Positions 1,488-26,900 are shown, numbered from the stretch's first letter. The stretch is 64,000 nucleotides of DNA from Marsupella aquatica (GCA_973895155.1 OZ316896.1:17906754-17970753), one strand, 5' to 3'. Notes: generated by a model not told the origin, from the sequence alone. Program-made: numbers and translations.

Positions 1488-2156
1488 GCTGATGCTAAGG
1501 ATGAGTACACAGACCCAGCCAGAATTCAAAATGTAATGAAAAATTATTCTCATTTCATTTCAATCCCAATCTACACCTATCAAGAAAATTCAAGGACAAA
1601 AGAGGTAACAAGAGCAGTGCCATATTGTGCTTGCGCTCTGTGTATCCTCCATGGGCTGCTACTCATCCTTGTACATGATTACTTGCTTGGATAGCTTGAA
1701 GATTAAGAATCGGCTTCTCCTGAAGGTGCCTCCAAGGAAGCTACTAAGGTAGGGTCTGAATGAATGTTTTGTCCCCATGGAATTTTACGTCCACATATGA
1801 TTGGATCAAATCATTTGTAATATGATTGTCATATTGTTCTACTTTTCTTTTGGAATTCTTACGAAAGAATGATGTGGCCTGTGCATAAGAAGACGAAGAA
1901 AGTCAGAGAAATATTGGGATTGGGAGCTGCTGACAAATGAGACAAAACACCTTTGGGTGAGTCAGTTTACTGTTCAAGATACCTGGTTTTACTAACTGTA
2001 CTGTTTGTTTGAGAATGTTTCATTCAGGCAGTAACCGAATATATTTGTTGACGTATTTTTAACAGTTCAGGTCAGAAAAGGATGTCACGAAGGCAGGACT
2101 CCAATGGGTTCTTCAAGAGTACATTTGGGGATTTCTTAGAAGCAATGGCTTATACT
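1488..2156 (+). pseudogene. HSP90: Organellar (plastid/mitochondrial-type) HSP90 pseudogene fragment, 4 exon remnants
   Basis: Remnants at 1488-1604 (ADAKDEYTDPARIQNVMKNYSHFISIPIYTYQENSRTKE), 1695-1748 (in-frame TAA at 1704), 1887-1956 (KKTKKVRE/YWDWELLTNETKHLW, frameshift, acceptor mutated to CAT) and 2066-~2156 (FRSEKDVTKA/DSNGFFKSTFGDFLEAMAYT, frameshift). These match the KNYSQF-x-x-FPIYTWQEK, YWDWEL-x-NETxPxW and EFLDPLA motifs of plant organellar HSP90s. Confidence 0.85.
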
Positions 2157-5169: not shown

Positions 5170-5500
5170 ATTGGCAAGTAATCTTCTACGACAGGACATG
5201 ACTCTGTCTAGTCTTACCCGGAGAACTGGCAAGTCCCACTCGGATTGGGAAGTCTCACAACTGAAATAGCTGCGAGAGAGAACTGTCTGGTCTCTGGAGT
5301 ACGGTGACAATGTATCGACTCCTTCCTAGACTGTATATTGTTCAGTGGATCTAGACACGGGAGTTGCAGCACAGTAGAGCTGGAATAATTGTCGCGGAGC
5401 AGTGTACAGCTACATCCTGATTGCACGTGATCCTTGAATCCATCGGCTAGGGTACGATTTATATGGAGAGATACGTCCAGATAAATGTGCAATCTCGCAG
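5170..5500 (+). repeat. ~330-bp flanking direct-repeat element, upstream of HNL1
   Basis: GCAAGTAATCTT...AAATGTGCAATCTCGC block. Homologous copies at ~12512-12820, ~17063-17388 and ~23977-24272, with split partial copies at ~13082-13140 and ~13563-13650. Confidence 0.8.
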
Positions 5501-6500: not shown

Positions 6501-9500
6501 ATGGCTCAGCAGGCCTCCTCTGGTCGCAGCCAAACTGGAGAGCCCTCCCATCACACAATTACGCAGGTATCTTACGGCATTAACCGCGATCTTGACCTCT
6601 TTGGGAATTCCTGTTCAGTCTATTTGGTGGTACTTTCGACATATGTAACGTGAAGATATTTCTCAATGATGAGTATTCTGAGATTCATCTATATATGTAA
6701 GTTTTCTATTTGGTGTTGTATCCAATCTCAAGTCGTATACAGCTAATTTTTATGCCTACATTATGTCGGCGTGCTTGGGTTTTACAGCTTAATGAATCTC
6801 TCTTTGAACTTTACAAACCGAAAGGCCGTGCTAGCATGGTGGTCTTGTTTTTTCACGGCTTTCAGCATGGAAATTATGAAAATGCCCATTTGTCAACATG
6901 GACAACGGACGATGGACGAGAGGATGGATCATCCACATGGCTCCAGACTTGGTTGGTTGATGACGACCAGTACCCCGATGCTCACATCCTTTCTGTTGAG
7001 TATAATGCGAGCTTGATGAAAAGCAACCAAGAAGGAAGCTTTGACCTCTACGTCATAGGGGAAAATATTATTTCAGATTTGCTAGAGGCAAATATTGCGC
7101 AAGATCTCCACTGTCCGATAGTATTGGTAGGACACAGTTTTGGGGGCCTTGTAGTGAAGGAACTATGCGTTCAAGCACATAAGAGAGGCAGCATGGGTAG
7201 CTCCAAGCACAAAACCTTTCTGGAAAATATCAAGGGGGCATTTTTCTACTCCACCCCTCATCATGGGATTTCAGGAGAAATTTCCGAGTATTTTGTGAGC
7301 AAAACAAATGAACCCTTGTTGAAATATGTGAAAGTCCTGAGTACTTCTGCAGCAAGATTGCATGAAGATTTTGAAAAGCTACGAAAGCAGTGCGCTTGGC
7401 AGACGGCAGGAGTAGGAGAAGGTTTAGCTACCCATCTGGTACGGGGCATTCACTCTCAATCTTATGAAATGGAAATATATTGAAGATTTCTGACAGCTTC
7501 CAATTATTTCTAAAGCAAATCAATGATTAGATATTACTTATAGACGGTAAAACATTTTCTCGATTGTTGACTAATTTGTTTCAGTTCATTCCATAGAACT
7601 GATAGACATAGGCAATGCGCAGTAACAGTTTCTTTTCTATGGATACCACTAACTCATCTACGTAGCATATAAGGGAGTTGATCAAGAGTAATTTGTGTGA
7701 AGGATATTGTAGATGCTTCATTCATTGGATCGTCACTTGCTTGTTTGCTTGTATGTGCGCAGAGCACATTTAAAACAGCGGTAATTGTACCGGAGGGATC
7801 GTCAAGATACGGAGACACCTTTGTTATCGTGCCAGAGGCTGATCACATATCAATCTGTCGGCCAAAATCAAAAATCTCAAGAACATTCAAGTCCTTGTCC
7901 AGCTTCCTGCGTGGAGTTTCCATTACTTGGAAGGTACGTGAAGTCAAATTGTCTCTCATATTTTTGGTGTACTTAATACAAAAGGTAGTGCTATGTCGCT
8001 TTGTGTCCACCGGTGCTTATTTTAGATTTTCTTTGTATTCATTGTTGGATTACAGAGACCAGTCCGGCCTCAGAACCGTCAATCTTTACCCAAATCAACG
8101 ATTGGTATTGATAATGTCATGAAAGAACTGAAACACAAGCTTGAGACGGTCACTAGTTTGGGCTTGACGGGTATGGGAGGGATTGGAAAGACCACCATGG
8201 CCAAGGCGTTATTCAATGATATCGAGCATCTTTACGAGTACACCTGTTTCGTTGGGGAGGTGAAGAATTACAGTGAGCACGAGGTTGAGGGTATGGTTTT
8301 AAGGAACATGCATCATATGGGAAGGAGGTTCACAGAGAAGGATCGTGGGTTAGAGTTCTTGGAAGGGGAACAGTTACTGTTGGTTCTCGATGATGTGGCT
8401 TCGGAAAAACATATTACGCTACTGTCAACCTTGATTGGTGACATTGGTATCCATGAAGACAGTCGCTTTGTGGTAACATCCAGAGATAGGGAACTTCTAG
8501 ATCAATGCTTGCAGGCAGTGCACCCTATGCCGTTTCTAAGCCAAGGAGATGCGAGGAAACTTTTCTTGGCCCATGCTGTTAGGCAAGAAGCTTCTCCTTC
8601 CTTTGAGGAACTCTTAGACATTGTTGTGAAAAAGTGCAGTGGGCTGGCTTTGACTCTGGAAGTCATCGGGAAGCATCTGTATAAAAAACCTGTGGCGATT
8701 TGGATGGAAGCGATCTCTATACTGGACAGGGCAGATTCTGTCCGTGGATTTGATGAGAAGTTGTGGAGTAAGCTCCGGATAAGTTTTGATGGTTTGGATG
8801 TTGAGGAGAAACACATATTCCTTGATTGTGCGACAGTATTCCATAGGGAAGGTCTGCTTGTGGCAAAGGCTGCCTGGAGCATCACCACAAATGGGCTTGA
8901 GGAGACACTTTGGCAACATCTTCTTGACTTATCGTTGGTCTGGGAAGATACTCAGTTCGATGATAGTCTAACTTGCGGCATGCATGAGCAACTTTTGAGC
9001 CTTGGGAAGAAAATAGCATCAAATGAAGTGGAATATGGCCTCAGGATGTGGAATCAGCCTAGAAGGGCTTTCCTTTTGTTATCATCAGATAATTGCAGTG
9101 ACAATGATGTGAAGGTGAGTTTGAAGAGTATGGTCTTTATTTGAGAATTTCCATGCACTGCATCATCGAATTGCCCGGGTTTGTATGATGGCCATTATTG
9201 AATGCTGCATGCTGTAGACCAAGGAGGGTCTCCCATGCTGTTGAATTTTCTCAAGACGTCACTGATATTGAGGAATATTCCACTTTGACATGGACAGGGC
9301 CACATGTACAAATTGGGTTTTGAAACTAAGAATGACTTGTGAGTTGAGATTTGTAGGCCATTGCTGCTATCAATGTGGATGGACGAGAACAAGGACATTT
9401 AACTGATGACGAGGTTTGTTGGTGGCATTTTGAAAAAGTTAATTTAGTCTGTGGAAAAGTTATAAGACAAGACTTCTCTAAATAAATATTTAGAACTAAT

Positions 9501-12419
9501 TAAAATGGATACTTGTGATCTTCTTTTTGATAGTAAGGTACTCAATGAAGAGCCCATTTGGTGTGAATGTATAAATCCTTGTTTACTTGGAATTGTTTTA
9601 CGAGAGAGGTCTAATCTTAGCCACAAACTGAAATGGTTTTTCTCGAAGTGAATATATATTTAAAAAAAGGCGTTGACTCGCGAGGTACTGTCAGTAGGTG
9701 TTAGTGCTTGTTTTGAATTTTTCTGAAGAAAGTTTCCACGCCAATGTTTTCTTTCACTACCTGCTTTCTTCATTCAGGCCACTTTTTTGTCAAAAATGAG
9801 CCATAGGGCATGTCTGGTTAAGCAAACTACACATGCCTGGTTAAGCAGATATATTCTTTTTGAATTTTGTTTGCTAACTGCACAAAAACAGTCATGACCT
9901 TTCAATTGCGAAAAGATCTATTTAATTTTGACCAATGTTAGAAAACCGGATGAGAGATATTGAATGGTAATTCTGTGTTGTTTGGTTGTAATTTCCATTG
10001 GTTCCACTTACTGCATTCCAAGTCTAGGAAATCATCTGTATGCTAGAGTCAATTTGCTGGAGCAGATCATGCAACTTCAGAAGGTCAGAATATTTAAAAA
10101 CTGTTTCATAGCTGGTCAGCTGTAACACTTACCCTTGAATTTTTTACTTTGTTCAGGAAAGCGTCACTCCCGTTAATACTGGGGACGCCGAAAACAGAAC
10201 TCTACCAGAAAACTCAACTGCAGAGACTTCCACCCGGGTCGTCGACAAATTTGTACGTTGTGACGAGTGTTCAATGAGAGTACCCATAGAGGGCCCGAGA
10301 TTCAAGTCTATGGTACAATATGACTATGATTTGTGTGGCGGGTGTTTTGAGAAGGGCGGTCACAGAAAAGACCAGTATGTTCGTATTGATCTACCTAATG
10401 TAAGTAACCGCAAGCGACTGACCGACCTCTTGAAAGAATTTTAAAGATATTTGTAATGAGCATTTCATCTCCTCACACAAAACTTTTACTATGGAAGGTT
10501 TGGCTGGACGCAAACACAGCATTCCTGTTGGAATATTAGAATGTATTGAAACAGAGTGCATGATCCACCTTCTGGAACACATGTGCTAATTGAGCTACTT
10601 TCAAATGATGTAGAAAGTATACAAGTCAGTAAAGTGATTTAAATTAGAGAGGTTGAAGGAAGATCAGATAGCTGTAGCACAAACATGTCAAACCTCTGAC
10701 ATGCCTGCACTGGATGTTTTGAAATGAATCTGCGTACAATGGTGGAAATTTTGACCCATAGTTGCCTTTGCTAATATCGCGTGCTCTCCCGAGGCATCTG
10801 GAGTGTTGAGGCTGTCCTACTCTCCCAAGGATATACTAATAAAGAGGAGATGAAAGAGGTTACATTAAGAAACAAATTCTAAGCCGGTTGTAGAGGACTG
10901 AGCACAGGATTATTTTTTATTGGATTGTTGATTCTATGGGGATGAAATAAAAACTGAATTTTGAGTTGGGATTTGTAGGATTATCGAGCTATCCGTGAGG
11001 GCCTCAGAGCAAATGTACAATCACATTCTGATGAGGTTTGTTTGTTACCTTTTCTTGACAAAGGGAAAACCTCGGGGCATGATGAGGTTTGTTGATGAGA
11101 TTTTGGAAAAGTTATTGTGGAAAAACACTCTAACCCAGGCCTTAGTATAGATTAGACGAGTATATAAAACTAAAGGTGTATTTGAGTTTTTCTTCTCAGA
11201 TGGTCCAACATGAAGAGCTACTGTAGTTTGGTGTGAATGGTTAAAACCTCTAACTTACTTTAAGGTAATAATAATGATAAAATGTTCTGAAGAGATGGAA
11301 CTTATCAGGATAACAAAAGCCTTTACTCAAAATTTATGGAAACTGTCTCGGGATTTCTAAGATGACCAAATGCTAGAAAGCTTGGACTGTCTACTACAAT
11401 ATATCTGTAGTTTTGAGGTTGTCCACGTGTCTCCCAAAGATACGTTCGAAAAGGTAAGATAAATGTGATGATATTCACAAACAAAGTCTAAGAAGGTAGG
11501 TTGTAATCTGTTTTATTGTTCTAATTCTGATTTTCAACGTAAAGTCTGAGACGGTAGTAGAGGACCAAGTACCAGCAAATTTCGTGAATCATCACTATTT
11601 AGGAGTAATTCAAAGCTGCGGCCTTCATTACTTCCGCTTACAGTAGTTAGAAAAACTAACCTGTTGTCTGGTGCCGTTGATGGTATTTGGTAGGACTTGC
11701 CCCCTCTTGAAGGAAGCACATTGTGCAATATGCGAAATCTGAGATATCTGGAGATGCACGGCTTAAGCATTGATCAAACTCATGGTGCAACACTGCCGTC
11801 GACACTCGTCTCCCTTAGGATGCGTCGAGTGCAGTTTTCTGATTTTCCTTTCCGTCCAAGCGACCATGAGCGGATGGCCATTCTGAGGATAGCGGATTGT
11901 GCTGGACTTCGTACCCTTCCCACTACTTTTGGCCGACTCTCTTCCCTTCAAGTGTTAAATATTACTGGGGCTCCTGATTTGAAGACCTTGCCTGACTCGC
12001 TTGGGAGTTTACGAAAGCTCTCAATTCTATGGCTATCCGATTGTTCGAGTCTATCGGAGTTACCGAAAATATTTGGTCAATTGGTATCTTTGAAACAGTT
12101 AACAATATTTGACTGTGATGCTCTATCAGCCTTGCCAAAGTCGTTTGGATTTTTACCAAAACTCAAAATTCTGTCTATCCGAGGCTGTCGTCGTCTTCAC
12201 ACCCTGCCCGATACATTCCTGGAGCTTCAAGGATTGAAGAAGTTAAAACTAGACGGGACATATTTGCAGAGCATTCCCAACTTGGAGAATCTTAGGTCAT
12301 TGGAAGATCTCGATGTACATCAGGATGCTCCTGATATTGCAATCGAGAGTCTATCCGATTTGATTCGTTGGAAGGCTGAGAGTGAAGCTCGTGAGGTTGA
12401 GGAAACTCGTCATGAATAA
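6501..12419 (+). CDS. alpha/beta-hydrolase-NB-ARC-ZZ-LRR immune receptor (HNL with integrated ZZ domain), copy 1, ~1009 aa
   Basis: Predicted exons 6501-6566, 6788-7438, 7763-7933, 8056-9114, 9357-9413, 10157-10399, 10979-11035, 11694-12419; all introns GT-AG and phase 0, frame open. Hydrolase motifs FFHG, GHSFGG, STPHHG, ADHISIC (SERAC1/PGAP1/SesB-like). NB-ARC motifs GMGGIGKT, LLVLDDV, SRFVVTSRD, GLAL, MHE. About 9 LxxLPxxFGxLxxLxxLxIxxC repeats. Confidence 0.9.
10157..10399 (+). other. Integrated ZZ-type zinc-finger exon (plant NBR1-like) of HNL1
   Basis: 243-nt phase-0 exon (TTCAG|GAA...AAT|GTAAGT) encoding ...RCDECSMRVPIEGPRFKSMVQYDYDLCGGCFEKGGHRKDQYVRID. Not in the ORF track. Confidence 0.85.
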
Positions 12420-12511
12420 AGTTGAGCTCTTGCAGACAAATATTTATCCAGCGGCCATTCTCTACTCCCACACCGTACGTATCGGCTGACTGAAGGGGGA
12501 AGGGCAATCCT

Positions 12512-12820
12512 CTGCAAGTAATCTTGTAGCAGTAAACATCACTCTGGCTAGTCTCGTCCGGCTTGGCAAGTGAATAACTGAAACACCGGCGAGGAAAACA
12601 CGTCTGGTATCTGAGAACGGCGACAATATCGACTCCTTCCCGAGCTCCTTCCTATTATATTGTTCAGTGGAGCAAGACATGTGAGATGAAGCACAGTAGC
12701 ATTGAAATAATTGTCGGGAGCAGTCTACAGCTACATCCGGATTGCACGTGATCCCTTGAATCCATCGGCTTGGGAAAGATTTACGTGGAAAGAAAGGTCC
12801 AGATAAATGTGCAATCTCGC
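12512..12820 (+). repeat. ~310-bp flanking direct-repeat element, downstream of HNL1
   Basis: Homologous to 5170-5500 (e.g. TATATTGTTCAGTGG, ACAGCTACATCC, GTCCAGATAAATGTGCAATCTCGC). Confidence 0.8.
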
Positions 12821-14779
12821 TATTCTCCACCTACCTAATGCATTCCTGTACCTTCAGAGACTCGAGCCCTTAGGCCTACTAAGGACATATTTGGAAAGCA
12901 TTCCTGACTTAGAACGTTCTCCGCTAATATATATATTTTTTTAAAGTAGTTTTCCGCTGTTGAAAGAATCCTGGTTGTCTTTGGCTGTGGAAAGTGGTCG
13001 CAACGAGAATGGAGCACTTGCAGGCTGTGAATTGTCGAACAGCCATTTGTCTGCCACATCTCCCAATCCATCTCGATCTGAGAAAGGAAGGGGCATCATC
13101 GGCAAGTAATCTTCCAGCAATCACCATCACTCTGGCGAGTCCATAGATTAGAACTTCTGGAACGTGTACGTTCGGAACAGATTGGTTGTCCTCTGCCAAC
13201 CCCAAATTCTTGATAGATTGGCTTTTTGTGTTGGAAATCAAATGGTTTCCATGTAATTTAACGCAACGAAGTTCGCTACATTAGTGACTGTCCTCTATCG
13301 TAGTTTTAGCTCCACTCCCGGGATCTCCGGGAGCTTTCCTCTGTGACATATGCGTGCTCCACTCCTTCCCCTAAGGATACTTTCTTGTGGCTGCCGTTTG
13401 TACCTTAGCTCTTCTTGCTGGCCTAAGTTTCCTTTCTGCTCCTGTATTTAGCTGGGCTCCCCCCGCTGGGTCTCTCATGCATTCAGCATCAATAAACATT
13501 CCTAGAAAGTTTATATTTTGGAGGCAACAGGTTCTTCCTATCTTGATTCTGGTGTGATCCATCTGGCTAGTAAATTAGTCTCACCGGGATCGGGAATTGC
13601 ACAACCGAAACGCCTGTGAGTGAAACACTGTTGGTCATGGAGTACAGTGATCCAGACAAGGGACATGAAAGCAGAGCAAAATTTGCCTTTCCTAGGAGCA
13701 GTCTAGGAACTCAGATCTCAGCCTGAATGACGTTGAATGCTAAACGTTGAACTCCATCTGTTAACAGGTAATGTCGGTAATTTCATTCTCCTCCAACAAA
13801 TTTCAAATCTTCATTCTCATTTCGAGCGAGACTAACGACATTATAGCTGAATGTTTGCTACGAGACATTCAGGTGATGGTCTAGTGATATAGTCTTCCCT
13901 GGAGGGCCCACCCTGATCCTCTGATTTCGGAAAGCCTCGAGCATCGGCAATTTTGTGTTCTGAAATATTGGGCTGTAGGGCATTAAATTTGAAGTCGATG
14001 ATGCTGGTGGCAGTTTGGAGTGATGGCCCCAGGGGCTGATAGTTGGGGTAGGGGGATGGGTAGCACGGGGATCCCCAATCTGGGGTCATGGCCCGCGCTC
14101 ATTTTGAGCTACTGGTGCTGCCTGGGCGCTCTTGCGTGGTCTCCTACCTTTTCATTTTCAAATTAATTCGTGGACCCCATGTTCATCCAAAGAATGTGTG
14201 TTTGATGAAGTGAAATCAATTTTCAACAAGGCGGTAATCGACGGTTTTGAGTCTCTCGATGGTCTTGGTGTGTGCTCGTACAAAAGAAAACGCTCAAAAG
14301 ATAGAGAGGAGATTTATCAACGGAAGGTTGAATATGGAGGAATTGAGTTTTTTGACGATTTTTGCTTACACATTGGAGAAATCGTGTTTCTATCATTCAT
14401 GATTGATCGTTTGTGAGTTACATTGAGCATTACCGCCACAAGACAGACTAGAGGACAACACTTAGCTATTGGCAAAAGAACGCTTGTCGATTCGGTGGGA
14501 AGAACACACAAAACAAACGAGTCATCGCTTCACATGAAGGATTTATAATTTTTTTATTTAAGAAAGCTATAGTGTGAAAGGGAGCCCAACAATTGTTTCT
14601 TTGACATAGTGGCTGCATTTGGCGTCAACCTATGTTCAGAGTGAGCTTCAGTTGAAGACTAGAGGAATGCGAACAATTCAATCCGGGAAGCAAGCATTGT
14701 GGACAAGGGATGGCGACGTAATCAAAAAAATCAATTTTCAACGGCTAAGTTTGTGAAGGTGATGAGATTGTGATATCTC

Positions 14780-15275
14780 TTAATCGAGAAAAGGTTTCCA
14801 ATGAGCCTCAAATTGACAAATTTTGTCAAGTTTCAAATGAGTTTTTGAATTTCTTTGTCTTTCCAATGAGTGTGAGTATAAGAAATATTGATCATGAGTC
14901 CATGAATTTTTTTAGCTTTCCAATATTGAGTCCGACATTGACAAATTTTACGTCAGATTTTGTCACGATACTAAAGAGATCACGAGGTTTTCAATCTCTC
15001 TAGCTTTCTAATGTGTGACATTGAGATTATTCGTCAAAAATTAGAGAGATCATGAGTATCTGAATTTCTCTAGCTTTCCAATGAACCTAGCATTGATAGA
15101 TTTTGTCAAATACTAAGGAGACGATGAGTTTTTAATTTTACTTTAGCTTTCCAATGAGTGTGACATTGATATATTTTATCAAGACAATACTAAAGAGGTC
15201 ACGAGTTTCTAAATCTTGATCTTGAGTTTTCCAATGAATCAAACATTGACATATTTTTTCAAATACTAAGGAGAT
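14780..15275 (+). repeat. Degenerate ~65-70-bp tandem repeat array
   Basis: Recurring core TAGCTTTCCAATGA...CATTGA...TTTTGTCAAATACTAAGGAG, about 7 units. The same family occurs inverted at ~47580-48345. Confidence 0.75.
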
Positions 15276-18200
15276 TGATTATTTAATTTTACTATGTACA
15301 TTTCTATTGGTTGGTTTTTTCAAGCTTGCAAATAATTAAAAAATACAAGCATTTTGATATAAAACACTGATATATCTTTGACAAACATCAAATTGGTAAC
15401 TTTATTTTACTAAATGACATATCTCTCTTTGTATTTTGGTTTTTTTTACGTTCAATATTTACGGTATGGCGCCCCAAAAATTATGTTGTTTTTGCCACAA
15501 ACAGGATTGTGCACATTTGTTATTGTTAAAAGTAGGACTGCGCAACCTCATGGCAAAGAATTTGCAAGAGACCTCTCATGGAGGTCCGTAATGAATTTCC
15601 TACTCGTGTGGTTTAACGAGACCAGAGCGTTGAGACGATAGATCAACAGCTATACACACTTTGAGAAGGCAAACTACAGTATTGTATCGACCACATGAAA
15701 GCTCATTAGCTTATTCCATGAGGTTTTCATTGATACCAAAATTATTCATGAAATTCAAAATTACGGAAAAGATGATGGCTGCAATTTTCACTTCAAAATA
15801 GTGATACACGATTCTACAAACTGATCAAATAACCTGTCCCAGTGAAAATTTGAAACAGTTTTCCTTTCATAAAAAATTGCTATCTGAGTCTACGAAATGA
15901 TTAATTAAGCTATCCCACTGAAAGTTTCGAGTAGTTCTCACTCCATTTGTAGTGCTATTCGCTAGTACAAAATCATCAACATGAGTTGTCCCAGTGAATC
16001 TTTCAAACCCACTTTCCCAGACTTTTGTAACTAACCCATTAAAAAGTATGGAACTTATGGATCAAACAAGTATTGAAGTTTGAACCCGCTTTAGTGTCCA
16101 CTAAAAATCCATAACCCATTGCTTCCACGCCCCACAATGTTCACAAATCTAATTTGCGGTTTGCGGGTAAACCTAGCCAGTGATTTAAGTTTTGCAGGGC
16201 AATTATAGCACATTTGCCCCGCCAACAGGGTCTTAAACAGTTGCACTGCTCAGGGATTTTTCATTCTTTCTATTTGTATACTCTTTTTTCTTTCCACACC
16301 TTAGGCAAACCTGGAAACTCCAGGTTTAACTTTTTACTAAGAGACAGACAAGTAGAAGACAAAGATGGAAACTGTAGTAGGTTTCAGCTTCTTACAAACA
16401 GACAAGTCGAACGACCACGGTTCGAGGCCAAGTCAAACGACCTCACACGGGCTTACTGCTTTACAGAGCCCAAACGGATCAGAGTGGTCGGAGCTGTTTG
16501 CAACTTAGTTGCTGAATCAGAATCTCTTTATTGAATCTCTCGTCAATTAGACAGCTTCAATTCAATTTCTGCCACCTAAATCACACAGCGTCCAGTCAAT
16601 CTCTGCCACTTCAGTCAAACAGCTTTTAATTCAATCTCTACCTCGTCATTCAGACAGCTCCGAGTCAACACTCTCTTCAATTGATTTATCTTCCTACTAA
16701 AATATTGCGTTTAACTCAGACAGCTCCGAGTCAACACTCTCTTCAATTGATTTATCTTCCTACTAAAATACTGCGTTTAACACAGAAAAAAGGTCTGCCT
16801 ATGACTCACCGTGCATACTTTCTTGCTGGTCAAGCAAAAGGACTTTTATTATCGTCACACGAAGACTGTAGTTTGTGGGTCCAGAGCATGGCAGGCTATC
16901 TCGTTGCCACCACACTGAAAATATTGAAACAATTGGAAATGACAAAGTATTGGGAAAGTTGGCCAAGAACACATTCACGGTTTTGGATAGCTGCAGACCT
17001 GCAGAGGCTTGGTCAGGTTCTGCAACCGCAGAGAGATTTTGTAGTAGTAGACGGGCACTCATTGGCAAGTAATCTTCTACGAAAGAACATGACTCTGTCT
17101 AGTCTTACCCGGAGAACTGGCAAGTCCCACTCGGATTGGGAAGTCTCACAACTGAAACAGCTGCGAGAGAGAACTGTCTGGTCTCTGGAGTACGGTGACA
17201 ATGTATCGACTCCTTCCTAGACTGTATATTGTTCAGTGGATCTAGACACGGGAGATGCAGCATAGTAGAGTTGGAATAATTGTCGCGGAGCAGTGTCCAG
17301 CTACATCCTGAATGCACGTCCCTTGAATCCGTCGGCTAGGGTACGATTTATATGGAGAGATATGTCCAGATAAATGTGCAATCTCGCAGAGAGAGTTTGT
17401 AGCAGTGGACTCCGCAAAATTCCGAAACAAAGTGCTGTGGATCGCCTGTTGTCTCCGTAGGTTGGAGCAGTATCATGTGTCACTGTGTCCCCTCTAAATT
17501 TTGCTTGATGATGGGGACATCTGCCTACCAGAGTCACAGAACGGAGCCCTTTCTGAGTAGATTGGCCCATTAACAACGGCCATCACGGGATCGACACCAA
17601 CCGTGTTGATCTTGACGTTGATCTGCCGCGATTGAAGTTTTTGTGGACGAAGTGCTGGACCTTCTCGTCGCCGGATCTGGACGGATCGCAGGACTGATTG
17701 GGCTGGGAGCTTTTTCGAGTACGTCTGACGACGGGAGGTCGGAAGGGAGGTAGCTTAAACTAGTTGCATTCTTCTCTGTCGGTCTACCACCCGGACAAAT
17801 TCATGAACATCAGGTGAGACTTTTGCACAGGAAAGAAGTTGCTGTCTTAAACATTATCTCAAACAAATACACTCAAATTTTGGAACTGTCATGGCGTGAT
17901 ATATTACGTTTAGGACAAAGCAAGCTATTGTTGTGGTATTTCTCACATTCGACTTGATCTCATCTAGTGAATGGTTTGCCGCTATCCGGCAACAAGTTTA
18001 TGTTGTGCGATGACGTGTCTACAGTAATGCCTGGTGGTACTCATTCTCCCAATTGGCCTACGCGCGAGCGGGACTGCTGCAAACTGATCACCTCAATTAG
18101 GTTAGGATCTTTCTAGAGGTAGTTCGGGGCTCCTCTTCTCGTTCATCCAAACATTGATTCAAAACTTCGGACGAAAGTAAGCAAGTTCTGTTTAAATCTG

Positions 18201-18410
18201 TGTCATTTGGTTCCTACTGCGAGTTGAAGTCTCTGCAAGCTGACGCAGAGTCTACGATTGGGTTTACATGGTCATCAGTTTCGTTCTTGCCCCGATTAAT
18301 ATGTGGAATTGATGTTTGTAGGTAAGCATTTGGAGGCTCGGCAGAGCCCGCCCACTCTGGAGTTAGCTGCAAAATTGACAAGTTCTCAGCAATTAAACTA
18401 AGCCATCGCT

Positions 18411-21400
18411 ATGGCTCAGCAGGCCTCCTCTGGTCGCAGCCAAACTGCAGAGCCCTCCAATCACACAATTACGCAGGTATCTTACGGCATTAACCGCGAT
18501 CTTGACCTCTTTGGGAGTTCCTGTTCAGTCTATTTGGTGGTACTTTCGACATATGTAACGTGAAGATATTTCTCAATGATGAGTATTCTGAGATTCATCT
18601 ATATATGTAAGTTTTCAATTTTGTGTTGTATCCAATCTCAAGTCGTATACAGCTAATTTTTATGCCTACTTTATGTCGGCGTGCTTGGGTTTTACAGCTT
18701 AATGAATCTCTCTTTGAACTTCACAAACCGAAAGGCCGACCTAGCATGGTCCTGTTGTTCTTTCACGGCTTTCAGCATAGGAATTATGAAAATGCCCATT
18801 TGACGGCATGGAAAACTAAGGATGGACGAGAGGATGGATCATCCACATGGCTCCAGGCTTGGCTGGCTGATGACGACCAGTACCCCGACGCTCACATTCT
18901 TTCTGTTGCATATAATGCTAGCTTAATGAAAAGCAAAGAAGAAGGATGCTTTGACCTCTACATCGTAGGGGAAAATATAATTTCAGATTTGCTAGAGGCA
19001 AATATTGCCCAAGATCTCCACTGTCCCATAGTATTGGTAGGACACAGTTTTGGGGGCCTCGTGGTAAAGGAAGTGTGTGTTCAGGCACATAAGAGAGGCA
19101 GCACGGGTAGCTCCAAGCACAAAATCTTTCTGGAAAATATCAAGGGGGTATTTTTCTATTCCACCCCTCATCATGGGATTTCAGGAGAAATTTCAGAGTA
19201 TTTTGTGAGCAAAACAAATGAACCCTTGTTGGAATTCGTGAAACTCCTTAGTACATCTGCGGCAAGATTGCGTGACGACTTTGACAAGGTACGAGAGCAG
19301 TGCGCTTGGCAGACGGCAGGAGTAGGAGAAGGTTTACCCACCCACCTGGTACGGGCATTCTCTCTGACTCTTATGAAATGGAAATATATTGAAGGTCAAA
19401 TCAATGATCATACAATACTTACACACAAAACACTCTTTTAGATCGTTGACGTACTAGTTTGTTTCAATTTATTCCAAAGAACAGATAGACAAAGGCAAAG
19501 CGCAGTAACAGATTCATAGTGAAGTGCAACTCTATGGATGCAATCTACTTTAGTAGTAATTCATCTAAAGTAGCATATAAACGAGTTGATAAAGAGTAAT
19601 TTGTATGAAGGATATTGTAGATACTTCATTCATTGGATCGTCAGTTAGTTGTTTGCTTGTACATGCACAGAGCACATTTAAAAAACAGGTAATTGTACCA
19701 GAAGGATCGTCAAGATATGGAGACGCCTTTGTTATCGTGCCAGACGCTGATCACATATCAATCTGTCGGCCAATATCAAAAATCTCAAGACCGTTCACGT
19801 CCTTGTCCAGCTTCCTGCGTGGAGTTTCCACTACTTGGAAGGTGAAGTCAAATTCTCGGGCCCTCATAATTTTGGTGTATTTCATACAGAAGGTAATGTT
19901 ATGTCACTTTGTGCCCACCGGTACTTATTTTTATATTTGCTTTTCATTGTTGACTTACAGAGACCAGCCCGTCCTCACAACCATCAATCTTTGCCTACGT
20001 CAATGATTGGTATTGATAACGTCATGAAGGAACTCAAACAGCAGCTTAAGACGGTCACCAGTTTAGGCTTGGCGGGTATGGGAGGGATTGGAAAGACCAC
20101 CATGGCCAAGGCGTTATTCAATGAAATGGAGCATCTTTATGAGTACACCTGTTTCGTTGGGGATGTGAAGAATTACAGTGAACACAAGGTTGAGGGTATG
20201 GTTTTAAGGAACATGCATCACATGGGAAAGAGGTTCACAGAGAAGGATGGTGGGTTAGAGTTCTTGGAGGGGAAACAGTTACTGTTGGTTCTCGATGATG
20301 TGGCCTCAGAAAAACACATTATGCTCTTGACAACCTTGATTAGTGACATTGGCGTCCATGAAGATAGTCGCTTTGTGGTAACATCGAGAGATAGTGAACT
20401 TCTAAATCAATGCTTGGAGGCAGTGCACCCTATGCCGTTTCTAAGCCAAGGAGATGCGAAGAAACTTTTCTTGACCCATGCTGTTAGGCAAGAAGCTTCT
20501 CCTTCTTCTGAGGAACACATAGACATTGTTGTGAAAAAGTGCGGTGGGCTGGCTTTGACTCTGGAAGTCATAGGGAAGCATCTGTATAGAAAACCTGTGG
20601 CGGTTTGGAAGGAAGCTATTCCAATACTGGACCGGGCAGATACTGTCCATGGATTTGATGAGAAATTGTGGAGTAAGCTTCGGATAAGTTTTGATGGTTT
20701 GGATCTTGAGGAGAAACACATGTTCCTAGATTGTGCAACAGTATTCCGTGGGGAACCTCTAAGTACAGCAAAGGTAGCATGGAGCGTCACCACAAATGGG
20801 CTGCAAGAGACACTGTGGCAACATCTTCTTGACTTATCGTTAGTCTGGGAAGTTCCTCTGTTCGGGTATCTAACTTGTGGCATGCATGAGCAACTTTTGA
20901 GCCTCGGGAGGAAAATAGCATCAAATGATGCGGAATATGGCCTCAGGATTTGGGATGACCATACTAGGGGTTTCCGTTTGCTGTCAGCTAAGGATTGCAA
21001 TGAGAATGATGTGAAGGTGAGTTTGAAGAGTATGGTCTCGATCTGAGAACTTCCGTTCACTGCAGCCAAGAATTGCTTAATTAGGGGTTTGCCTCTTGGC
21101 CATTATTGAATGCTGCATGCTGTACATCTAACTAAGGAAGGTCTCCAATCTGGATCTTCTGAACATATGACTAATACGGAGGATTATTCCACTTTGATCA
21201 TGTACAGGGCTATGTGTAGAAATTCAGTTTTGAGAAAAAGATTGACTTGTGAGTTGGGATTTGTAGGACATTGCTGCTATCAATGTGGAGGGAGGAGGAA
21301 GAGTACATTTGTCTTTACTTGAGGTTTGTTGGTGGCTTTTTGAAAAAGTTGTTTTGGAAAAGTTATAATTAACGCAAACCTTCTATACATGAATGCTTAG

Positions 21401-23971
21401 AACTAAATGGATAGTTGGAGTTTCCTTATTGAAATGTAGTAGATGACGAGCTCATTCATGTGAACGAATAAATCCTTGCTTTACTTATTTTAAATTGATT
21501 TTTTTTAATAAATAGAAAATTATGTAGTCTTAGCCTCAAACTAAAATGTTTTCTCTCTTAAGTAAACCGCATGCACTCCTCTAGACCTGACGGTAAAGCG
21601 ATGACTTTTCAATGTGTTGGTGAAACAGCGTGAATATATCTACTTTTCTGAGAAAGGCTCCGGGAAAGGCTTTCCTCCGGGGGCTCTCACAAGAACTCTA
21701 CCAGAAAACGCAACACCAGAGAATTCGACCAAGGTCTTCCACAAGTATAAAGTTTGTGACAGGTGTTCAATGTACCCCATAGAAGGGCCGAGATTCCACT
21801 CTCGGGTGCAATTCAACTATGACTTGTGTGCCCGGTGTTTCGAGAAAGGTGGTCACACAAAAGACGAGTACTCTCGTATCGATCTACCTCCTGTAAGTAA
21901 CCCCAAGCGACTGACCTCTTGCAAAAATTTAAATTATTTTCCATGAGCGTTTCATCTGATCACACGAAACTGTGTCTATGGAAGGTTTGGCTTGTACATT
22001 CAAACATAAAATTCCGATTTGATCATAAGAGTGTTAGTATTGAAAATATAGTCCATGATCCACCTTCTGTAATACATGTACTAAGCTCCTTTCAGAATGT
22101 AGAAAGACCGTATAGAAAGTCAATAAATTGATTTGATTAGAAGATGTTGAGGGAAGGTAAGAGAGTCGACGCGCGAACTGGTCAGACCTTCGATGTGCCG
22201 GTATTTATTTAGAATTTTTGAATAGAATCTTCAGAGTAAATTTTTTAAGACTTTTTTTTATAAATTTGCGGACGATGATGGAAAATGAATTGCTAACATC
22301 TTGAATTTGGAGTTTTGAGGCTGTCCTCTTCAACCTCGCAATGATATACTACTGAAGAGGAGATGCACATGATTACATTAAGAAACAAATTCTAAGATGG
22401 CGGTAGACCGAGGAGTAAGCACAAGAACATTTTCTAATGAATTATTTTCATTCTGTGGGGATTCAATATAAACTGACTTTTGAGTTGATCTTTGTTCGAT
22501 ATTCAGGCTATCAATGTGGGTGGAGGAGCAAGTGTACTGTCCTCTGATAAGGTTTGTTTTTCTTTTTTTGCGCAAAGTGGAAGGGAAATCCTGCGGATGA
22601 TGAGGTTTGTTGGTGGGGTTTGGAAAAAGTTAATGTGGAAAAACTCTGTAACCTTCGTAGAGATACCTTCATAGAGATGAAAACATATATGAATACATAG
22701 AATTAATGTATAAGTAGGTGGTTCTTCTTCTCGGGATGTACAAGCTGAAGAGCTCCTTTGGTGTGAATGGAAAAACGTTCCTTGTTTTCTGTTAACTAAA
22801 ACAATGCTCTAAAGAGATAGGACCTTCCAGTATGACTAGAATGTTTTCTGGAAATTTTCCTAGATATATGTCTGGACTTATAATTGACCAAATGGTAGAA
22901 ACTTTTGTACTGTGAGAAGATATATCTGTACTTTGAGGCTGTCCATAAGTCTCTCAAACATATATTCTGAAAGAGAGGATGAATGTGATTACATCTAGAT
23001 GCAAATTCTAAGACGGTAGGTTGGATCGATCCTGTCAGTTTAGATGTTTTAAATTCCAAGGCAAAGTCTAAGACGATCGTAGAGGACCAAGTACCAGCAA
23101 ATTTCGTATTGAATCATCATTAGGATTAACTCGAAGCTGCGGCCTTCGTACTTAAATACGCTTACAGTCGTCAAGCCAGTTGCAAACTGTGAAAGAAACT
23201 AACCTGTTGTGTGGTGGGGTTGATGGGCTTTGGTAGGACTTGCCCATTCTTGAAGGAACCACATTGTGCAAAATGCGAAATCTGAGATACTTGACGATGT
23301 CTGGCTTAACCATTGATCAAACTCATGGTGCAACACTGCCGTTCACACTTGTTTCCCTTCGGATGGCTGGGATGCAGTTTTCTGATTTTCCTTTCCGCCC
23401 AATCGACCATGAGCGGATGGCCATTCTGAAGATAGAGTGGTGTTCTGGTCTGCGTACCCTTCCCAGTACTTTTGGCCAACTCTCATCCCTTCAAGAGTTA
23501 CATATATGGGGGGCTCGTCATTTGAAGACCTTGCCTGAATCGCTCGGTCTTTTACCGAAGCTGACATCTCTAAGCTTTTCCAGTTGTTCAACTCTAGTGG
23601 AGTTACCGCAAACGTTTGACCAATTGGTATGTTTGGAAACACTAGAAATTAATTTCTGCGATGCTCTATCAGGCTTGCCAAAGTCGTTTGGATATTTGTC
23701 GAAGCTCAAATATCTGGATATCAGAGGCTGTTGTCGTCTTCACACCCTACCTGATACATTCCTGGAGCTTCAAGGATTGGAGCGCCTATACCTCTTGCAC
23801 ACATCGTTGCAGAGCATTCCCAACTTGGAGAATGTTAGGTCATTGAAAGATCTCAGAGTATATCAGCATACTCCTTATATCAGTATCCCAAGTGTGTCCG
23901 AGTTGCTGCTTCGGAAGGCCACTCATGAAGCTCGTGACGTTCAGGAGGAAACTGGTCATGAAGAAAGTTGA
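18411..23971 (+). CDS. alpha/beta-hydrolase-NB-ARC-ZZ-LRR immune receptor (HNL with integrated ZZ domain), copy 2, ~1006-1014 aa
   Basis: Predicted exons 18411-18476, 18698-19348, 19671-19841, 19961-21016, 21267-21323, 21629 (or 21653)-21892, 22507-22551, 23237-23971; all phase 0. Same motifs as copy 1: GHSFGG, DHISIC, GMGGIGKT, LLVLDDV, GLAL, MHE, LRRs. Confidence 0.9.
21629..21892 (+). other. Integrated ZZ-type zinc-finger exon (plant NBR1-like) of HNL2
   Basis: Encodes VFHKYKVCDRCSMYPIEGPRFHSRVQFNYDLCARCFEKGGHTKDEYSRID, with donor CCT|GTAAGT at 21893. Two in-frame acceptors are possible (CAG 21628, GAG 21652). Confidence 0.85.
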
Positions 23972-26900
23972 GCTCCTGCAAGTAATGTTTTACCAGCAAA
24001 CATTACTCTGGCTAGTGTCGCCCGGGTTGGGAAGAGCTGCAACTGAAACGCCTGTCAGTGAAACACGTCGGGTCTTTTGTGACAATTTGTCGATTCCTTC
24101 CGACTATATTGTTTAGTGGATCTAGACATGAGAGATGAAGGCACGGCAGAATTCACTTGCAATAATTGTCGGGGAGCAGATACCTACATCCGGATTGCAC
24201 GTGATGCCTTGAATCCATGGGCGAGGGAAACATTTATATGCAGGAACACATCCAGGGAAATGTGCAATATTGCTGTACTGAAGCTTAAGGACTGGAAATT
24301 TGGTTTGATAGCAGTGTGCCCAATCCACATGATTATGCTTTGAATCTTACTGAATTTGGGAATGTTAGGTGCATCGAAGGCCTGACTTCGAGGTGCTCTG
24401 CGCACTGGCTGAGTGGGTACTGGCACGTACTGATCCCAAACGGTACTCGATGGAGGAAACATCTGTCAGGGAGTCACGGGAAATTCACACTTCCCTCCGC
24501 TGGTCCGAGGAGGCTGGGATGCGACGAGACGAGAGTTAAGGCTACCATTGAATTGGGGGCGACAATGGATGGACTGGAAATGTGATCGACTAGCAGCTCT
24601 AGGCTGATAAGGCTAGCTAGCCTACTTGAATTTGCACATCAGATCGTGCAGATCGAAGCATGCCAGATGGCTGGCTCACTTGAATGGACGAAGTTCTGTA
24701 GACTAATTGTTTAGCTTTCTTGAGGTTGCACTGTTCTCCATCGCAATTTGCGTGACATTCTGATGCCATCGTCCGGGTCCGTCCTTTTATTTCATTGTCA
24801 TGATTGATATTCAGGATCGACGGAATCGTACCCATTGACAGAGAATGTTTTTTCGAGATCTCTAAATAATTCACCACTCCCCAAATTGATTCTCCTACCC
24901 AACCCCGTTGTTCTCTGGATTCCTGTCTGCATTGCGCATGAGCAAGCGTTCCCCCTCCCCTACTTTTCCCTTCTATTTGCCAGATCCTTATCTAGAGAAG
25001 AGAGGTTTAAGGTCTAGAGGGACCCAATGGCTTGAATATGGCGAGATTGCACATTTCCTTTCACTGAAGGAGCAAAAACGCCAATCACACTTCTGTCCCA
25101 AAATGGGGAAAATGGTTGGCCTGGACCAAGCTCTGCCTGCACTCTCCACCCCCATAGCTCTCCTTGTGACTCGACTCTCTTTGTACTGATCCTGCTGCCT
25201 CTCCTTCCGAGCTTGCAGCAGCCATCCCTTTGGCTTTGGAGCTCTCGGCTACCGCCATACTAAGCTGTAAAGCTCAATGTTGCCAACGCTTCCTTGTGTG
25301 CATATTAATTAAGTTGCCAAGGAAAGTCGCTCTTTGGTGGACTTGTTCATGAGCTCGCATTTGTCCCTCACTTTGGTTGATGTGGGACTTCTTTGGTGCA
25401 CGATGGACGACACAATGTTCATCCTAATTAGTGTTAGGAACAAATTAGCGTCACTACCAAATAAGTGTTAGTAACACTAACCTTTGAAAGTTATCTTAAA
25501 GTCCATGACAAAACCTGGATTCACGAGGTTTCACCACTTTTAGTACTTTTTTTCTAAAATTGTGGAGCAAAGTCTCCCCCTCGAGGTGAGGAATGTGGAA
25601 AAGGGAGAAGTCTCGAACACTTTTCCTTTTATATGGCCAATGGTGATTTAAGTTCAAAGTAAGACTAATTCTTGTCCGTTTTTGAAAGTAGTTTCTTTCC
25701 ACTCCTGTTTAAAGTTCTAGGAAAAAATGGGTCATCTTGAGTCTCCAAAGTAACACTAACTCTTGTGTATTTTCAAAATAGTTTTGTTTCCCACTATGAG
25801 CCTAAATGCCCATTCTTTGAGTATTAATACTAGGAATGATGACAAAAATGATCTTGCGTCATTCATTTAGACATACATAGAATGATCTATCTTTCTTTCC
25901 ATCTGCAAATTTTGGTGGGGCCCTAGAGTCACATCCTAGATAGATCTAGCTTCTATTCCCGCTTTATTAGTACTATATTTCCACTCTTGAGGCCAAAGTA
26001 ACACTGATTCATGTGTGCAGAATTAATATTATAACAGAATTAGAGTGAGTAATACTAATTAATGGGTAGAGCCCAAAATTGGCCCCTTGCATATTATAAT
26101 ACTAATCAATATGAACAGCTCAAGAGGTTAACTCAGTGTACATTTTGGGGTTATGCACCCATCCTAGCCTAATATAATTGCATCTATTTTATCAAGAAAA
26201 ATTTCCAAAAATATTCTTAATTTTCAATATGGATTATTTATTGTACTTTATAGAAGGCATATATTAGAGAACATTTTATAAATGTGAGTTTAATATACCT
26301 TCTTTTGTCTCTTACGCTTTTTAAGTTTTTAGCTAATTTCAAGCAAAAATATTTATTTTGGATCACTTTCCTACAATTTTTTTCTATTAGGACCCCCCCC
26401 CCCCCCCCAGGTAAACAATGTAGCTTTTCATGGTAAATGGATGCAGCCATTGTAAAAAGGTCTCCTCCACATATTTCCTATCAAAACATTGAAAATGGGA
26501 CCTTGTTTGTTAATTTCCATACTTCCAATTACATTTACATTTGTTCAAATTATCATGACATGCATGGTTACTGTATTGTTATCACACTTTAAATCTAACA
26601 ATACAAATGGCACCTTCATTTTCTGGGGTTTACCTGGTGTTTGTCTCCATGGAAGGATGGCCAGATTGAACAATCTATTGTTTCCAGTATGTAGAGCTCT
26701 CACAACTCCCATCATGACTGCAGCGCGTGAACTGTGATGGTACCCTACCCAGGGATACCAGCCAAGAATTATAGTGATCGATCAAGTGAACGTCCCGATA
26801 GTGAGGTTCTGTATAGACACAAAAGACTGACACTCAAGGCGCTTGGATGGAGTGACTACCAACCTTGATAGGCACAATCTAGACATTGATTACACTCCCA

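Follow-up and report, generated by a model that had tools for sequence, protein, structure and literature searches.

Two tandem hydrolase-NLR genes, each with an internal ZZ zinc-finger exon, lie in a 64,000-nucleotide stretch of the Marsupella aquatica genome (hereafter the window). On balance we favor, with moderate confidence, the explanation that the ZZ derives, by capture, from an NBR1-family gene of the same plant and serves as an integrated sensor. The two genes represent a real, lineage-conserved and apparently undescribed variant of hydrolase-NLR with an integrated domain.

Both genes have open eight-exon models, in which exon use is predicted, with no internal stops and with GT-AG introns that are all in phase 0 (Table 1). 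The encoded proteins (1009 and 1014 aa) are 78% identical, and Pfam assigns the same domain order to both, namely alpha/beta-hydrolase, NB-ARC, ZZ and LRR. The initial annotation had described two intact genes of approximately 1010 aa, placed head-to-tail and each carrying an in-frame ZZ exon. The gene models and Pfam agree with the arrangement, the ZZ exon boundaries and the open frames, but the total length is unsure because exon 7 duplicates exon 5. The duplicated block takes in approximately 1.7 kb upstream of each gene and goes on at 73% identity (10196-12452 versus 21692-23997, self-BLAST). Gene 1 and gene 2 are recent tandem duplicates.

Table 1. Positions of the two genes and their parts within the window; exon 7 candidates are in parentheses
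Feature	Position	Strand	Basis or remark
Gene 1, hydrolase-NB-ARC-ZZ-LRR	6501..12419	+	Pfam; 990 aa if exon 7 is skipped, otherwise 1009 aa
Gene 1 exons	6501-6566, 6788-7438, 7763-7933, 8056-9114, 9357-9413, 10157-10399, (10979-11035), 11694-12419	+	
Gene 1 alpha/beta-hydrolase, exons 2-3	6788..7933	+	Pfam DUF676 E 4.5e-7
Gene 1 NB-ARC and winged helix, exon 4	8056..9114	+	Pfam PF00931 E 1.4e-26
Gene 1 exon 5, conserved beta-strand likely opening the LRR, then start of variable loop	9357..9413	+	ZZ-less relatives; C. fissa model
Gene 1 ZZ exon, NBR1-like linker and one-zinc ZZ	10157..10399	+	Pfam PF00569
Gene 1 candidate exon 7, a second copy of exon 5 not followed by a ZZ exon	10979..11035	+	DNA-level duplication
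Gene 1 LRR exon	11694..12419	+	Pfam LRR_14 E 1.3e-20
Gene 2, architecture as gene 1	18411..23971	+	Pfam; 1014 aa with exon 7, 999 aa without
Gene 2 exons	18411-18476, 18698-19348, 19671-19841, 19961-21016, 21267-21323, 21629(or 21653)-21892, (22507-22551), 23237-23971	+	
Gene 2 ZZ exon	21629..21892	+	Pfam ZZ E 5.5e-9; AlphaFold model
Gene 2 exon 7 candidate	22507..22551	+	Homologous acceptor mutated; in-frame AG 12 nt downstream
Duplicated block, matching 16730-21557 at 88.7% identity	4842..9644	+	Self-BLAST

The contigs in all four sequencing runs compared span introns and show no exon joints. Those of two runs from two studies, one of which may be the assembly's own sample, match 21260-23340 without difference, and exact contigs run from exon 5 of gene 2 through the ZZ exon and exon 7 into the beginning of the LRR. 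For gene 1, no single contig among those listed bridges exon 5 to the LRR start. Mis-assembly or a chimera was rejected in view of the exact bridging contigs and of a second species in which the architecture recurs. The possibility of an independent ZZ gene lying inside an intron was likewise rejected, since the exon has no start or stop and its splice sites are in phase. The window holds only two NLR genes, head-to-tail and both with a ZZ, and no linked helper NLR without a ZZ, which in such pairs usually stands head-to-head, was found within it, which argues against a sensor-helper pair.

The assignment to the hydrolase-NLR (HNL) class made in the initial annotation is supported by Pfam domains, conserved motifs and NB-ARC grouping. 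The DUF676 serine-hydrolase and PF00569 score above the Pfam cut-off in both genes. The hydrolase of gene 1 retains Ser139 in GxSxG and His267, and Glu233 is a candidate for the acid of the catalytic triad; in 31 aligned rows (the two window genes and 29 bryophyte hits) these positions hold Ser in 29 and Glu and His in all 31. The P-loop (Lys341 in gene 1), Walker B and RNBS-B are intact in both genes, so that the claimed integrity of the P-loop and of the catalytic Ser and His stands. The MHD motif reads MHE in 31/31 rows (605-607 in gene 1), and GLPL is GLAL in both genes. NB-ARC E-values are 1e-26 (gene 1) and 4e-25 (gene 2), and a C-terminal LRR was identified by Pfam in both. A PDB search with the hydrolase exon gave no significant match; plant NLR structures come first in a fold search with the model of a homolog from the leafy liverwort Calypogeia fissa. 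Section 8 of Chia et al. 2024 (PMC11218826) describes HR-like death in N. benthamiana caused by two Marchantia hydrolase domains.

The ZZ occupies a separate phase-0 exon in both genes and matches PF00569 (cut-off 21.4 bits) with 31.7 bits in gene 1 (E 1e-7) and 36.1 bits in gene 2 (E 6e-9). Each copy retains 16 of the 17 residues in columns conserved in at least 90% of 23 NBR1 ZZ domains. Both keep the four Zn1 cysteines (Cys703/706/728/731 in gene 1), with the central Cys pair replaced by S..Q, as expected from the NBR1-type signature that had been recognized initially; loss of the Zn2 Cys pair is not diagnostic alone, and a rough pattern count puts it at 138 of 305 non-NLR domains. Judged by alignment, the positions of the p62 pocket residues Asp129, Asp147 and Asp149 (taken, with Asn132, from PMC6098011) would be Asp704, Asp724 and Asp726 in gene 1 and Asp, Asn and Asp in gene 2, the latter being the set found in the second ZZ (ZZ2) of the C. 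fissa NBR1 family. The gene 2 exon has two in-frame acceptors, 21629 (CAG) and 21653 (GAG), of which the second is homologous to the ZZ-exon acceptor of gene 1.

The predicted fold, the Zn1 Cys4 site and the putative acidic pocket positions are shared with plant NBR1/Joka2 and with ZZ readers of N-termini (p62, S. pombe Nbr1, PRT1, BIG, HERC2 and KCMF1), and land-plant NBR1 has also lost the Zn2 Cys pair. The differences are that the window-gene proteins have no PB1, FW or UBA and that Ser replaces p62's Asn132 in both. Among the best 150 of 865 representative hits, the closest non-NLR match is ZZ2 of the C. fissa PB1-ZZ-ZZ-UBA-UBA proteins P0112 and P0259 (83.8 bits, next 77.1), and the C. 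fissa NBR1-family ZZ2 has the best pairwise score for six of seven NLR ZZs. The likeness reaches approximately 18 residues into the linker before ZZ2 (52% over 71 aa); capture of an NBR1 segment is therefore likely. One ZZ tree joined six NLR ZZs with the four from the C. fissa NBR1 family, plus a single outsider on a long branch (99/84). A second (mixture model, 38 rows, 54 columns) placed the NLR ZZs with streptophyte NBR1 ZZs (96/90) and did not recover a special link to the C. fissa NBR1-family copies; a topology in which the NLR ZZs are the sister group of every NBR1 ZZ was not rejected by an AU test on these 54 columns (p 0.30). The decayed P0006 was left out of the trees. The expected grouping with NBR1, against two-zinc ZZs, appeared in both trees, but their rows held no identified plant PRT1, BIG or ADA2; by phmmer, the ZZs of these three match the ZZ exons at 13-24 bits. 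The likely source of the exon is an NBR1-family gene of the plant itself.

By NB-ARC, the window genes stand closest to hydrolase-NLRs of C. fissa, with up to 67% identity compared to 33-41% for Marchantia hits. In the NB-ARC tree (P0097, which is short, omitted) three C. fissa proteins form the sister group of the window genes (100/100), and the whole falls within a C. fissa clade of 15 rows (100/100); a hydrolase and NB-ARC tree omitted P0003, which has a duplicated front. Of the 23 C. fissa NB-ARC hits, five carry a ZZ in the same loop, compared to none of the 82 others; three of the five helped build the profile, and Pfam marks those three independently. These unnamed predictions (CAM6114803.1, CAM6114805.1, CAM6100455.1, CAM6098506.1 and CAM6109739.1) share the architecture and insertion loop of the window genes and include the ZZ in their gene models, but are 51-65% identical where compared and have no exon 7 duplicate. 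Two of their ZZs are intact and three altered or decayed: P0007 lost a pocket Asp, P0010 one Cys, and P0006 keeps 9 of the 17 residues. No internal ZZ exon was found in 14 Marchantia, 2 Riccia and 6 Sphagnum hits, and none of 22 loci in a metagenome scan matched gene 1 or P0005 in the NB-ARC, the hydrolase or the LRR.

We predict that the insert occupies a loop of variable length where the LRR begins. The exon 5 strand is conserved in relatives without a ZZ and corresponds to residues 645-649, a strand in the C. fissa homolog's model. The loop tolerates inserts, because its length is 10-35 aa in nine ZZ-less relatives and 84 aa in one, P0009, where the insert is acidic and unrelated. The isolated gene 2 ZZ folds as a ZZ in an AlphaFold model (pLDDT 87, TM 0.81 to the HERC2 ZZ); a Foldseek search with the 53-aa model gave no hit at E <0.001, and all 39 listed rows were ZZ-bearing chains. 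When the C. fissa homolog is modelled at full length, the LRR is confident on either side of the insert, but the ZZ is poor (pLDDT <50 for most of 653-703), so its placement in the receptor is predicted only. The initial annotation had put the ZZ between NB-ARC and LRR, in an unusual internal position; it does follow the NB-ARC, but its predicted place is a loop at the LRR start. Domains placed between NB-ARC and LRR are rare, though cases are known.

Such a permissive loop raises the question of whether the ZZ is a tolerated passenger, included or skipped without effect while the LRR does the sensing, and kept only insofar as a folded insert harms less than an unfolded one. Decay in three of five C. 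fissa copies and the unrelated P0009 insert fit this reading, as does another copy in which a joint from 10318 to 10697 (short side 35 nt, in both runs) removes half of the ZZ exon. Skipping would also be harmless, because any combination of exons 5-7 keeps the frame. The LRR is the fastest-evolving large exon (dN/dS 0.79, compared to 0.42 for NB-ARC and 0.52 for the ZZ core of only 53 codons), and DNA identity of the ZZ exon (78.5%) is no higher than that of the flanking introns (79-80%). These ZZ values, like the frame-neutral skipping and the altered C. fissa copies, count against the integrated-sensor explanation. Between the two genes, however, 15 of 17 NBR1-conserved columns are identical compared to 21 of 37 others (Fisher p 0.021), and conservation of the ZZ core exceeds neutral expectation (neutral simulation P 0.001-0.026). 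The four intact copies, which come from two lineages with proteins sharing only 51-65% identity, also retain pocket and surface residues beyond the cysteines. We regard the passenger reading as rather unlikely.

A regulatory role, in which the ZZ binds a host protein or the receptor's own N-terminus and sets its resting state, location or turnover, also seems unlikely to us. In its favor, ZZ pockets bind host N-termini with loose specificity. Host RPS6 is bound by an Arabidopsis NBR1 fragment that includes the ZZ, NBR1 of rice binds to the NLR BPH14, whose output it dampens, and the insert is predicted to adjoin the switch region. Against such a role, the ZZ is present in only one subclade and is lost in some copies with other motifs visibly unaffected, and neither PB1 nor UBA, the parts linked to autophagic turnover, was taken over.

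At the DNA level, exon 7 is in both genes a copy of exon 5 together with its intron flanks, with a GT donor and an in-frame acceptor in each. Exon 5 plus the ZZ exon could alternate with exon 7 as cassettes that yield receptors with and without a ZZ; skipping exons 5-6 and using 7 leaves open frames of 909 and 907 aa. We think a switch of this kind improbable, given that the homologous acceptor is mutated in gene 2, exon 7 has diverged at its opening strand residues, and C. fissa gene models have no counterpart. It would be compatible with the integrated-sensor explanation.

Bryophyte hydrolase-NLRs (Hyd-NLR/HNL; Chia et al. 2024, PMC11218826; Chia and Carella 2023, PMC10952240) share an alpha/beta-hydrolase at the N-terminus, NB-ARC and LRR, to which the window genes add an internal ZZ exon. 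The available text of Chia et al. 2024 reports integrated domains, including zinc fingers, in non-flowering NLRs including Hyd-NLRs, and defines them as N- or C-terminal. As in other NLRs with integrated domains (Sarris et al. 2016, PMC4759884; Bailey et al. 2018, PMC5819176; RefPlantNLR, PMC8559963), a host-gene domain is fused with intron-exon pieces at a recurring tolerant site, with subclade duplication and decay. Validated integrated domains lie at termini or before the NB-ARC, whereas the ZZ follows it, and the window has no linked helper; mid-protein cases have been annotated (Arabidopsis ZBTB8B, maize REC104). ZZ is absent from the six zinc-finger rows of the Sarris et al. domain table. 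The initial impression that no HNL-ZZ had been described holds in the literature searched, where we found no hydrolase-NLR with a ZZ, although catalogue rows labelled only "ZZ" may be missed. A ZZ in another NB-encoding bryophyte protein had nevertheless been mentioned once: one sentence in the available text of Andolfo et al. 2019 (PMC7145615) places PF00569 in Physcomitrium patens NLR-like proteins, giving no gene, position, ZZ type or N-terminal class.

We infer that a genomic piece with the NBR1 linker and second ZZ landed, probably once, in a phase-0 intron of an ancestral hydrolase-NLR, at the length-tolerant loop. The ZZ would fold independently around one zinc, attached where the LRR begins and close to the winged-helix switch. 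The integrated copy would be bound by a pathogen protein that targets NBR1's ZZ, whether by binding or by attack, or that this ZZ would catch in its acidic N-terminus pocket, and the LRR/ARC2 hold on ADP would loosen; nucleotide exchange and oligomerization would then cluster the hydrolase domains for a cell-death-type response. Copies no longer meeting their ligand would decay, as in C. fissa. In favor of this reading, ligand N-termini are bound by the pocket's Asp residues in p62 and in the Nbr1 of S. pombe; against it, the ZZ of mammalian NBR1 has been described as perhaps not an N-recognin. The initial annotation had proposed self-contained receptors that would guard selective autophagy through a ZZ decoy, which we treat as hypothetical. 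Known contacts, in the source text available, involve other parts of the pathway: effector SDE4405 contacts NBR1 via UBA, BISP turnover needs NBR1 PB1/UBA/LIR, and PexRD54 competes for ATG8CL. No effector binding the ZZ of plant NBR1 was found in the available text on effector-NBR1 contacts. Alternatively, though we doubt it, the ZZ could be a working N-terminus trap rather than a passive decoy, with NLRs that fire on exposed N-termini and possibly cassette-spliced isoforms; such N-termini would belong to proteins of microbial origin on entry into the cell or to host proteins cleaved by proteases. We found no description of NLRs recognizing exposed N-termini in the literature consulted.

In the literature text available, no ligand is assigned to the plant NBR1 ZZ and no activating ligand is described for hydrolase-NLRs, on which the ZZ variant offers a handle. 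The LRR-start loop takes 50-120 extra residues, and the natural series of intact, altered and decayed ZZ copies makes a direct test possible. Integrated domains indicate pathogen targets. An NBR1-derived ZZ kept in a liverwort NLR subclade would point to the plant NBR1 ZZ as a contact point for microbes, and to selective autophagy as part of the bryophyte immune battleground.

Tandem hydrolase-NLR genes carrying a ZZ zinc finger are present in Marsupella aquatica. Gene models assembled from GT-AG sites in window positions 5001-26000 contained eight exons per gene, with every intron in phase 0 and internal stops absent, and encode predicted proteins of 1009 aa (gene 1) and 1014 aa (gene 2) that are 78% identical. 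Consistent with the initial annotation, Pfam identified a DUF676 hydrolase, NB-ARC, ZZ, and LRR in both genes (ZZ scores of 31.7 and 36.1 bits, respectively; cut-off 21.4), and the NTPase (P-loop) and hydrolase catalytic motifs are intact in each. The head-to-tail arrangement described there was also recovered, as a duplicated block with 88.7% identity over 4.9 kb, including about 1.7 kb of upstream DNA per gene. Contigs from two runs in two studies had zero differences across window positions 21260-23340, and these matching contigs span the stretch of gene 2 that runs from exon 5 through the ZZ exon to the beginning of the LRR. Gene 1 was covered by contigs in pieces only, and divergent contigs over its ZZ exon, for example with 14 differences in 160 nt, indicate that further copies or alleles exist.

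The presence of a 270-300 nt element upstream and downstream of each gene suggests that the tandem array was once longer. An open frame at 16630-17220, over one element copy, had no convincing Pfam match. Among the neighboring genes, the AAA ATPase is of the BCS1-like class, members of which have been tied in flowering plants to stress and to cell death, and the PA-domain exons resemble RMR-type sorting receptors.

Features surrounding the tandem hydrolase-NLR genes, in window coordinates
Feature	Position	Strand	Remarks
Hsp90 exon	1467-1694	+	
270-300 nt element	5226-5498, 12544-12820, 17117-17387, 23976-24274		Copies 71-79% alike; flank each gene on both sides
Broken piece of LRR from another hydrolase-NLR	12765-12914		Lies a short way downstream of gene 1; matches C. 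fissa LRRs in tblastn
High-copy repeat	about 14060-15850		Between genes 1 and 2; in each of the four runs, contigs lie hundreds of times deeper here than the background
Exons with PA domain and likely membrane span	34703-36937	+	
AAA ATPase gene	40928-42890	+	AAA_assoc and At3g28540-like lid domains (Pfam)
Inverted relative of the intergenic high-copy repeat	near 47590-48120		
Kelch-repeat gene, FKB95-like	54026-55498	-	

The ZZ is inserted after a conserved beta-strand (exon 5) and before the first clear LRR unit. The earlier placement between NB-ARC and LRR is correct in that the ZZ lies downstream of NB-ARC, but the insert is within the loop following the exon-5 strand rather than simply interdomain; from general NLR architecture, this strand may be the first LRR rung. 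The loop spans 10-35 aa in nine ZZ-less relatives and 78-146 aa in the six ZZ carriers examined; the tenth ZZ-less relative measured has an 84-aa acidic loop at this site. In the AlphaFold model of P0005, a Calypogeia fissa hydrolase-NLR, confidence is high for the strand (645-649) and for the LRR, starting at about 730, but not for most of the insert.

In both genes, exon 7 is a copy of exon 5 together with its intron flanks, a feature with no counterpart in the models of relatives. Its homologous acceptor is lost in gene 2, where an in-frame AG lies 12 nt further on, and the ZZ exon of gene 2 has two in-frame acceptors, 21629 and 21653. Because all eight combinations of exons 5-7 are in frame in each gene, the original estimate of about 1010 aa describes the eight-exon models but widens to 990-1014 aa with the ZZ, and ZZ-less forms are possible. 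The ZZ could thus be part of a splicing switch, although we consider this quite improbable.

The best 13 matches in a search with the NB-ARC exon were all from C. fissa (up to 67%), followed by Marchantia. The search yielded no near-identical protein, which makes a different leafy liverwort the probable source of the window. A ZZ-like stretch occurred in five of 105 NB-ARC matches, comprising 5 of 23 from C. fissa and none of 82 others. Two of these five carriers have an intact ZZ with all 17 residues conserved in NBR1, whereas P0010 has lost one Cys and one pocket Asp, P0007 one pocket Asp, and P0006 all but 9 of the 17. ZZ carriers formed two groups inside an unresolved C. fissa clade in an NB-ARC-only tree and lay on one side of a branch (73/94) in a hydrolase plus NB-ARC tree, in which a single grouping was neither shown nor rejected. 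The most economical account is a single insertion at a single site, and the architecture has been kept in two or more lineages of liverworts. Separately, three C. fissa hydrolase-NLR models (P0003, P0004, P0008) have doubled fronts or a second NB-ARC past the LRR, reflecting either tandem fusions or annotation merges.

An initial ZZ search identified a JOKA2-like protein from Silene (56%). When 1.84 billion representatives were scanned in full, 865 matched, of which the best 150 were analyzed; none of these 150 contained NB-ARC. Rescored against a profile that was built from five NLR ZZs, they had as top non-NLR domain the second ZZ (ZZ2) in a PB1-ZZ-ZZ-UBA-UBA protein from C. fissa, with flowering-plant NBR1s next. 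This ZZ2 was also the top pairwise match for six of seven NLR ZZs, and the likeness extends into the linker preceding the domain. One tree united NLR and C. fissa NBR1-family ZZs (99/84), plus one long-branch stray; a second, using a mixture model, placed NLR ZZs among NBR1 ZZs (96/90) with the C. fissa link gone, and a sister position of NLR ZZs to the NBR1 ZZs as a whole was not rejected in an AU test (p 0.30). With NLR ZZs grouping with NBR1 ZZs against two-zinc ZZs in both trees, the NBR1-type origin first proposed is well supported at the sequence level; the scores suggest a C. fissa-type ZZ2 paralogue as donor, which the trees do not prove. The C. fissa NBR1-family proteins P0112 and P0259 have PB1, two ZZ, and two UBA domains without a Pfam FW domain, and P0136 from Riccia has PB1 and two ZZ only; the liverwort NBR1 family looks remodelled, or these models are incomplete. 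Another fusion of this ZZ type is P0163, a Logan protein in which an alpha-kinase is joined to two NBR1-like ZZ domains without the central Cys pair.

Of the 17 residues that are conserved across 23 NBR1 ZZ domains, 16 are present in each window ZZ. An AlphaFold model of the isolated domain has the ZZ fold (pLDDT 87; TM 0.81 to HERC2 ZZ). The Cys4 site is preserved in both genes, as are the equivalents of p62 Asp129 and Asp149 in an alignment to p62; the Asp147 equivalent is Asp or Asn, as in NBR1s. ZZ pocket residues of p62 hold the ligand's alpha-amino group (PMC6098011; bioRxiv 2021.02.07.430097). Genes 1 and 2 agree at 15 of 17 NBR1-conserved positions but at 21 of the other 37 (p 0.021). 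For ZZ conservation, neutral simulation with intron-like divergence gave P 0.001-0.026. Counting against selection on the ZZ are a core dN/dS of 0.52 (53 codons) and ZZ exon DNA identity between the genes equal to that of the flanking introns. A tolerated passenger is an alternative, unlikely in our judgment but the least so of those considered.

We lean toward the view that the ZZ is an integrated sensor domain. A microbial protein that attacks, or can be captured by, the ZZ of NBR1 would bind the integrated copy at the LRR start, ligand binding would release the ADP-bound state, and this release would lead to clustering of the hydrolases. Beyond the intact motifs and the HR-like death caused by two Marchantia hydrolase domains (PMC11218826), we infer these steps. 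Guarding of selective autophagy, as initially proposed, would be one form of the integrated-sensor reading and has no direct support: SDE4405 contacts the UBA of NBR1 and PexRD54 is a competitor for ATG8CL (PMC13140610), and BISP turnover requires PB1, UBA, and LIR (PMC10284691). A 314-aa plant NBR1 fragment containing the ZZ binds host RPS6 (PMC7140714), the only ZZ-containing interaction of plant NBR1 found in the literature examined, including PMC9582228. The ZZ might instead be a regulatory module, which we place between the passenger and splicing explanations in likelihood. No helper NLR was found within the 64-kb window, and genes 1 and 2 may function as singletons.

Integrated domains are common in NLRs as a class. 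They occur in about 4% of non-flowering NLRs, including Hyd-NLR carriers and zinc fingers (Chia 2024, PMC11218826), and rare domains between NB-ARC and LRR are on record in RefPlantNLR (PMC8559963) and the maize NLRome (PMC10257044). A ZZ is mentioned without detail as one of the domains that NLR-like proteins of P. patens carry (Andolfo 2019, PMC7145615) and is absent from the 11 of 15 Sarris 2016 supplements searched (PMC4759884). In agreement with the initial annotation, full-text literature searches (also covering PMC5819176, PMC10156165, PMC10952240, and PMC12512272) turned up neither a publication describing a ZZ in a hydrolase-NLR nor one dealing with NLRs of Calypogeia, though the domain could be listed in the supplements to Chia 2024 and RefPlantNLR. 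Public C. fissa predictions already contain the hydrolase-NB-ARC-ZZ-LRR architecture, unnamed. The hydrolase-NLR with an integrated ZZ is real and apparently undescribed as an architecture. Hydrolase-NLRs with an integrated domain are a known kind, from which these genes differ by ZZ donor and position; the specialist value of the finding lies in these two features, with ZZ inclusion here predicted.
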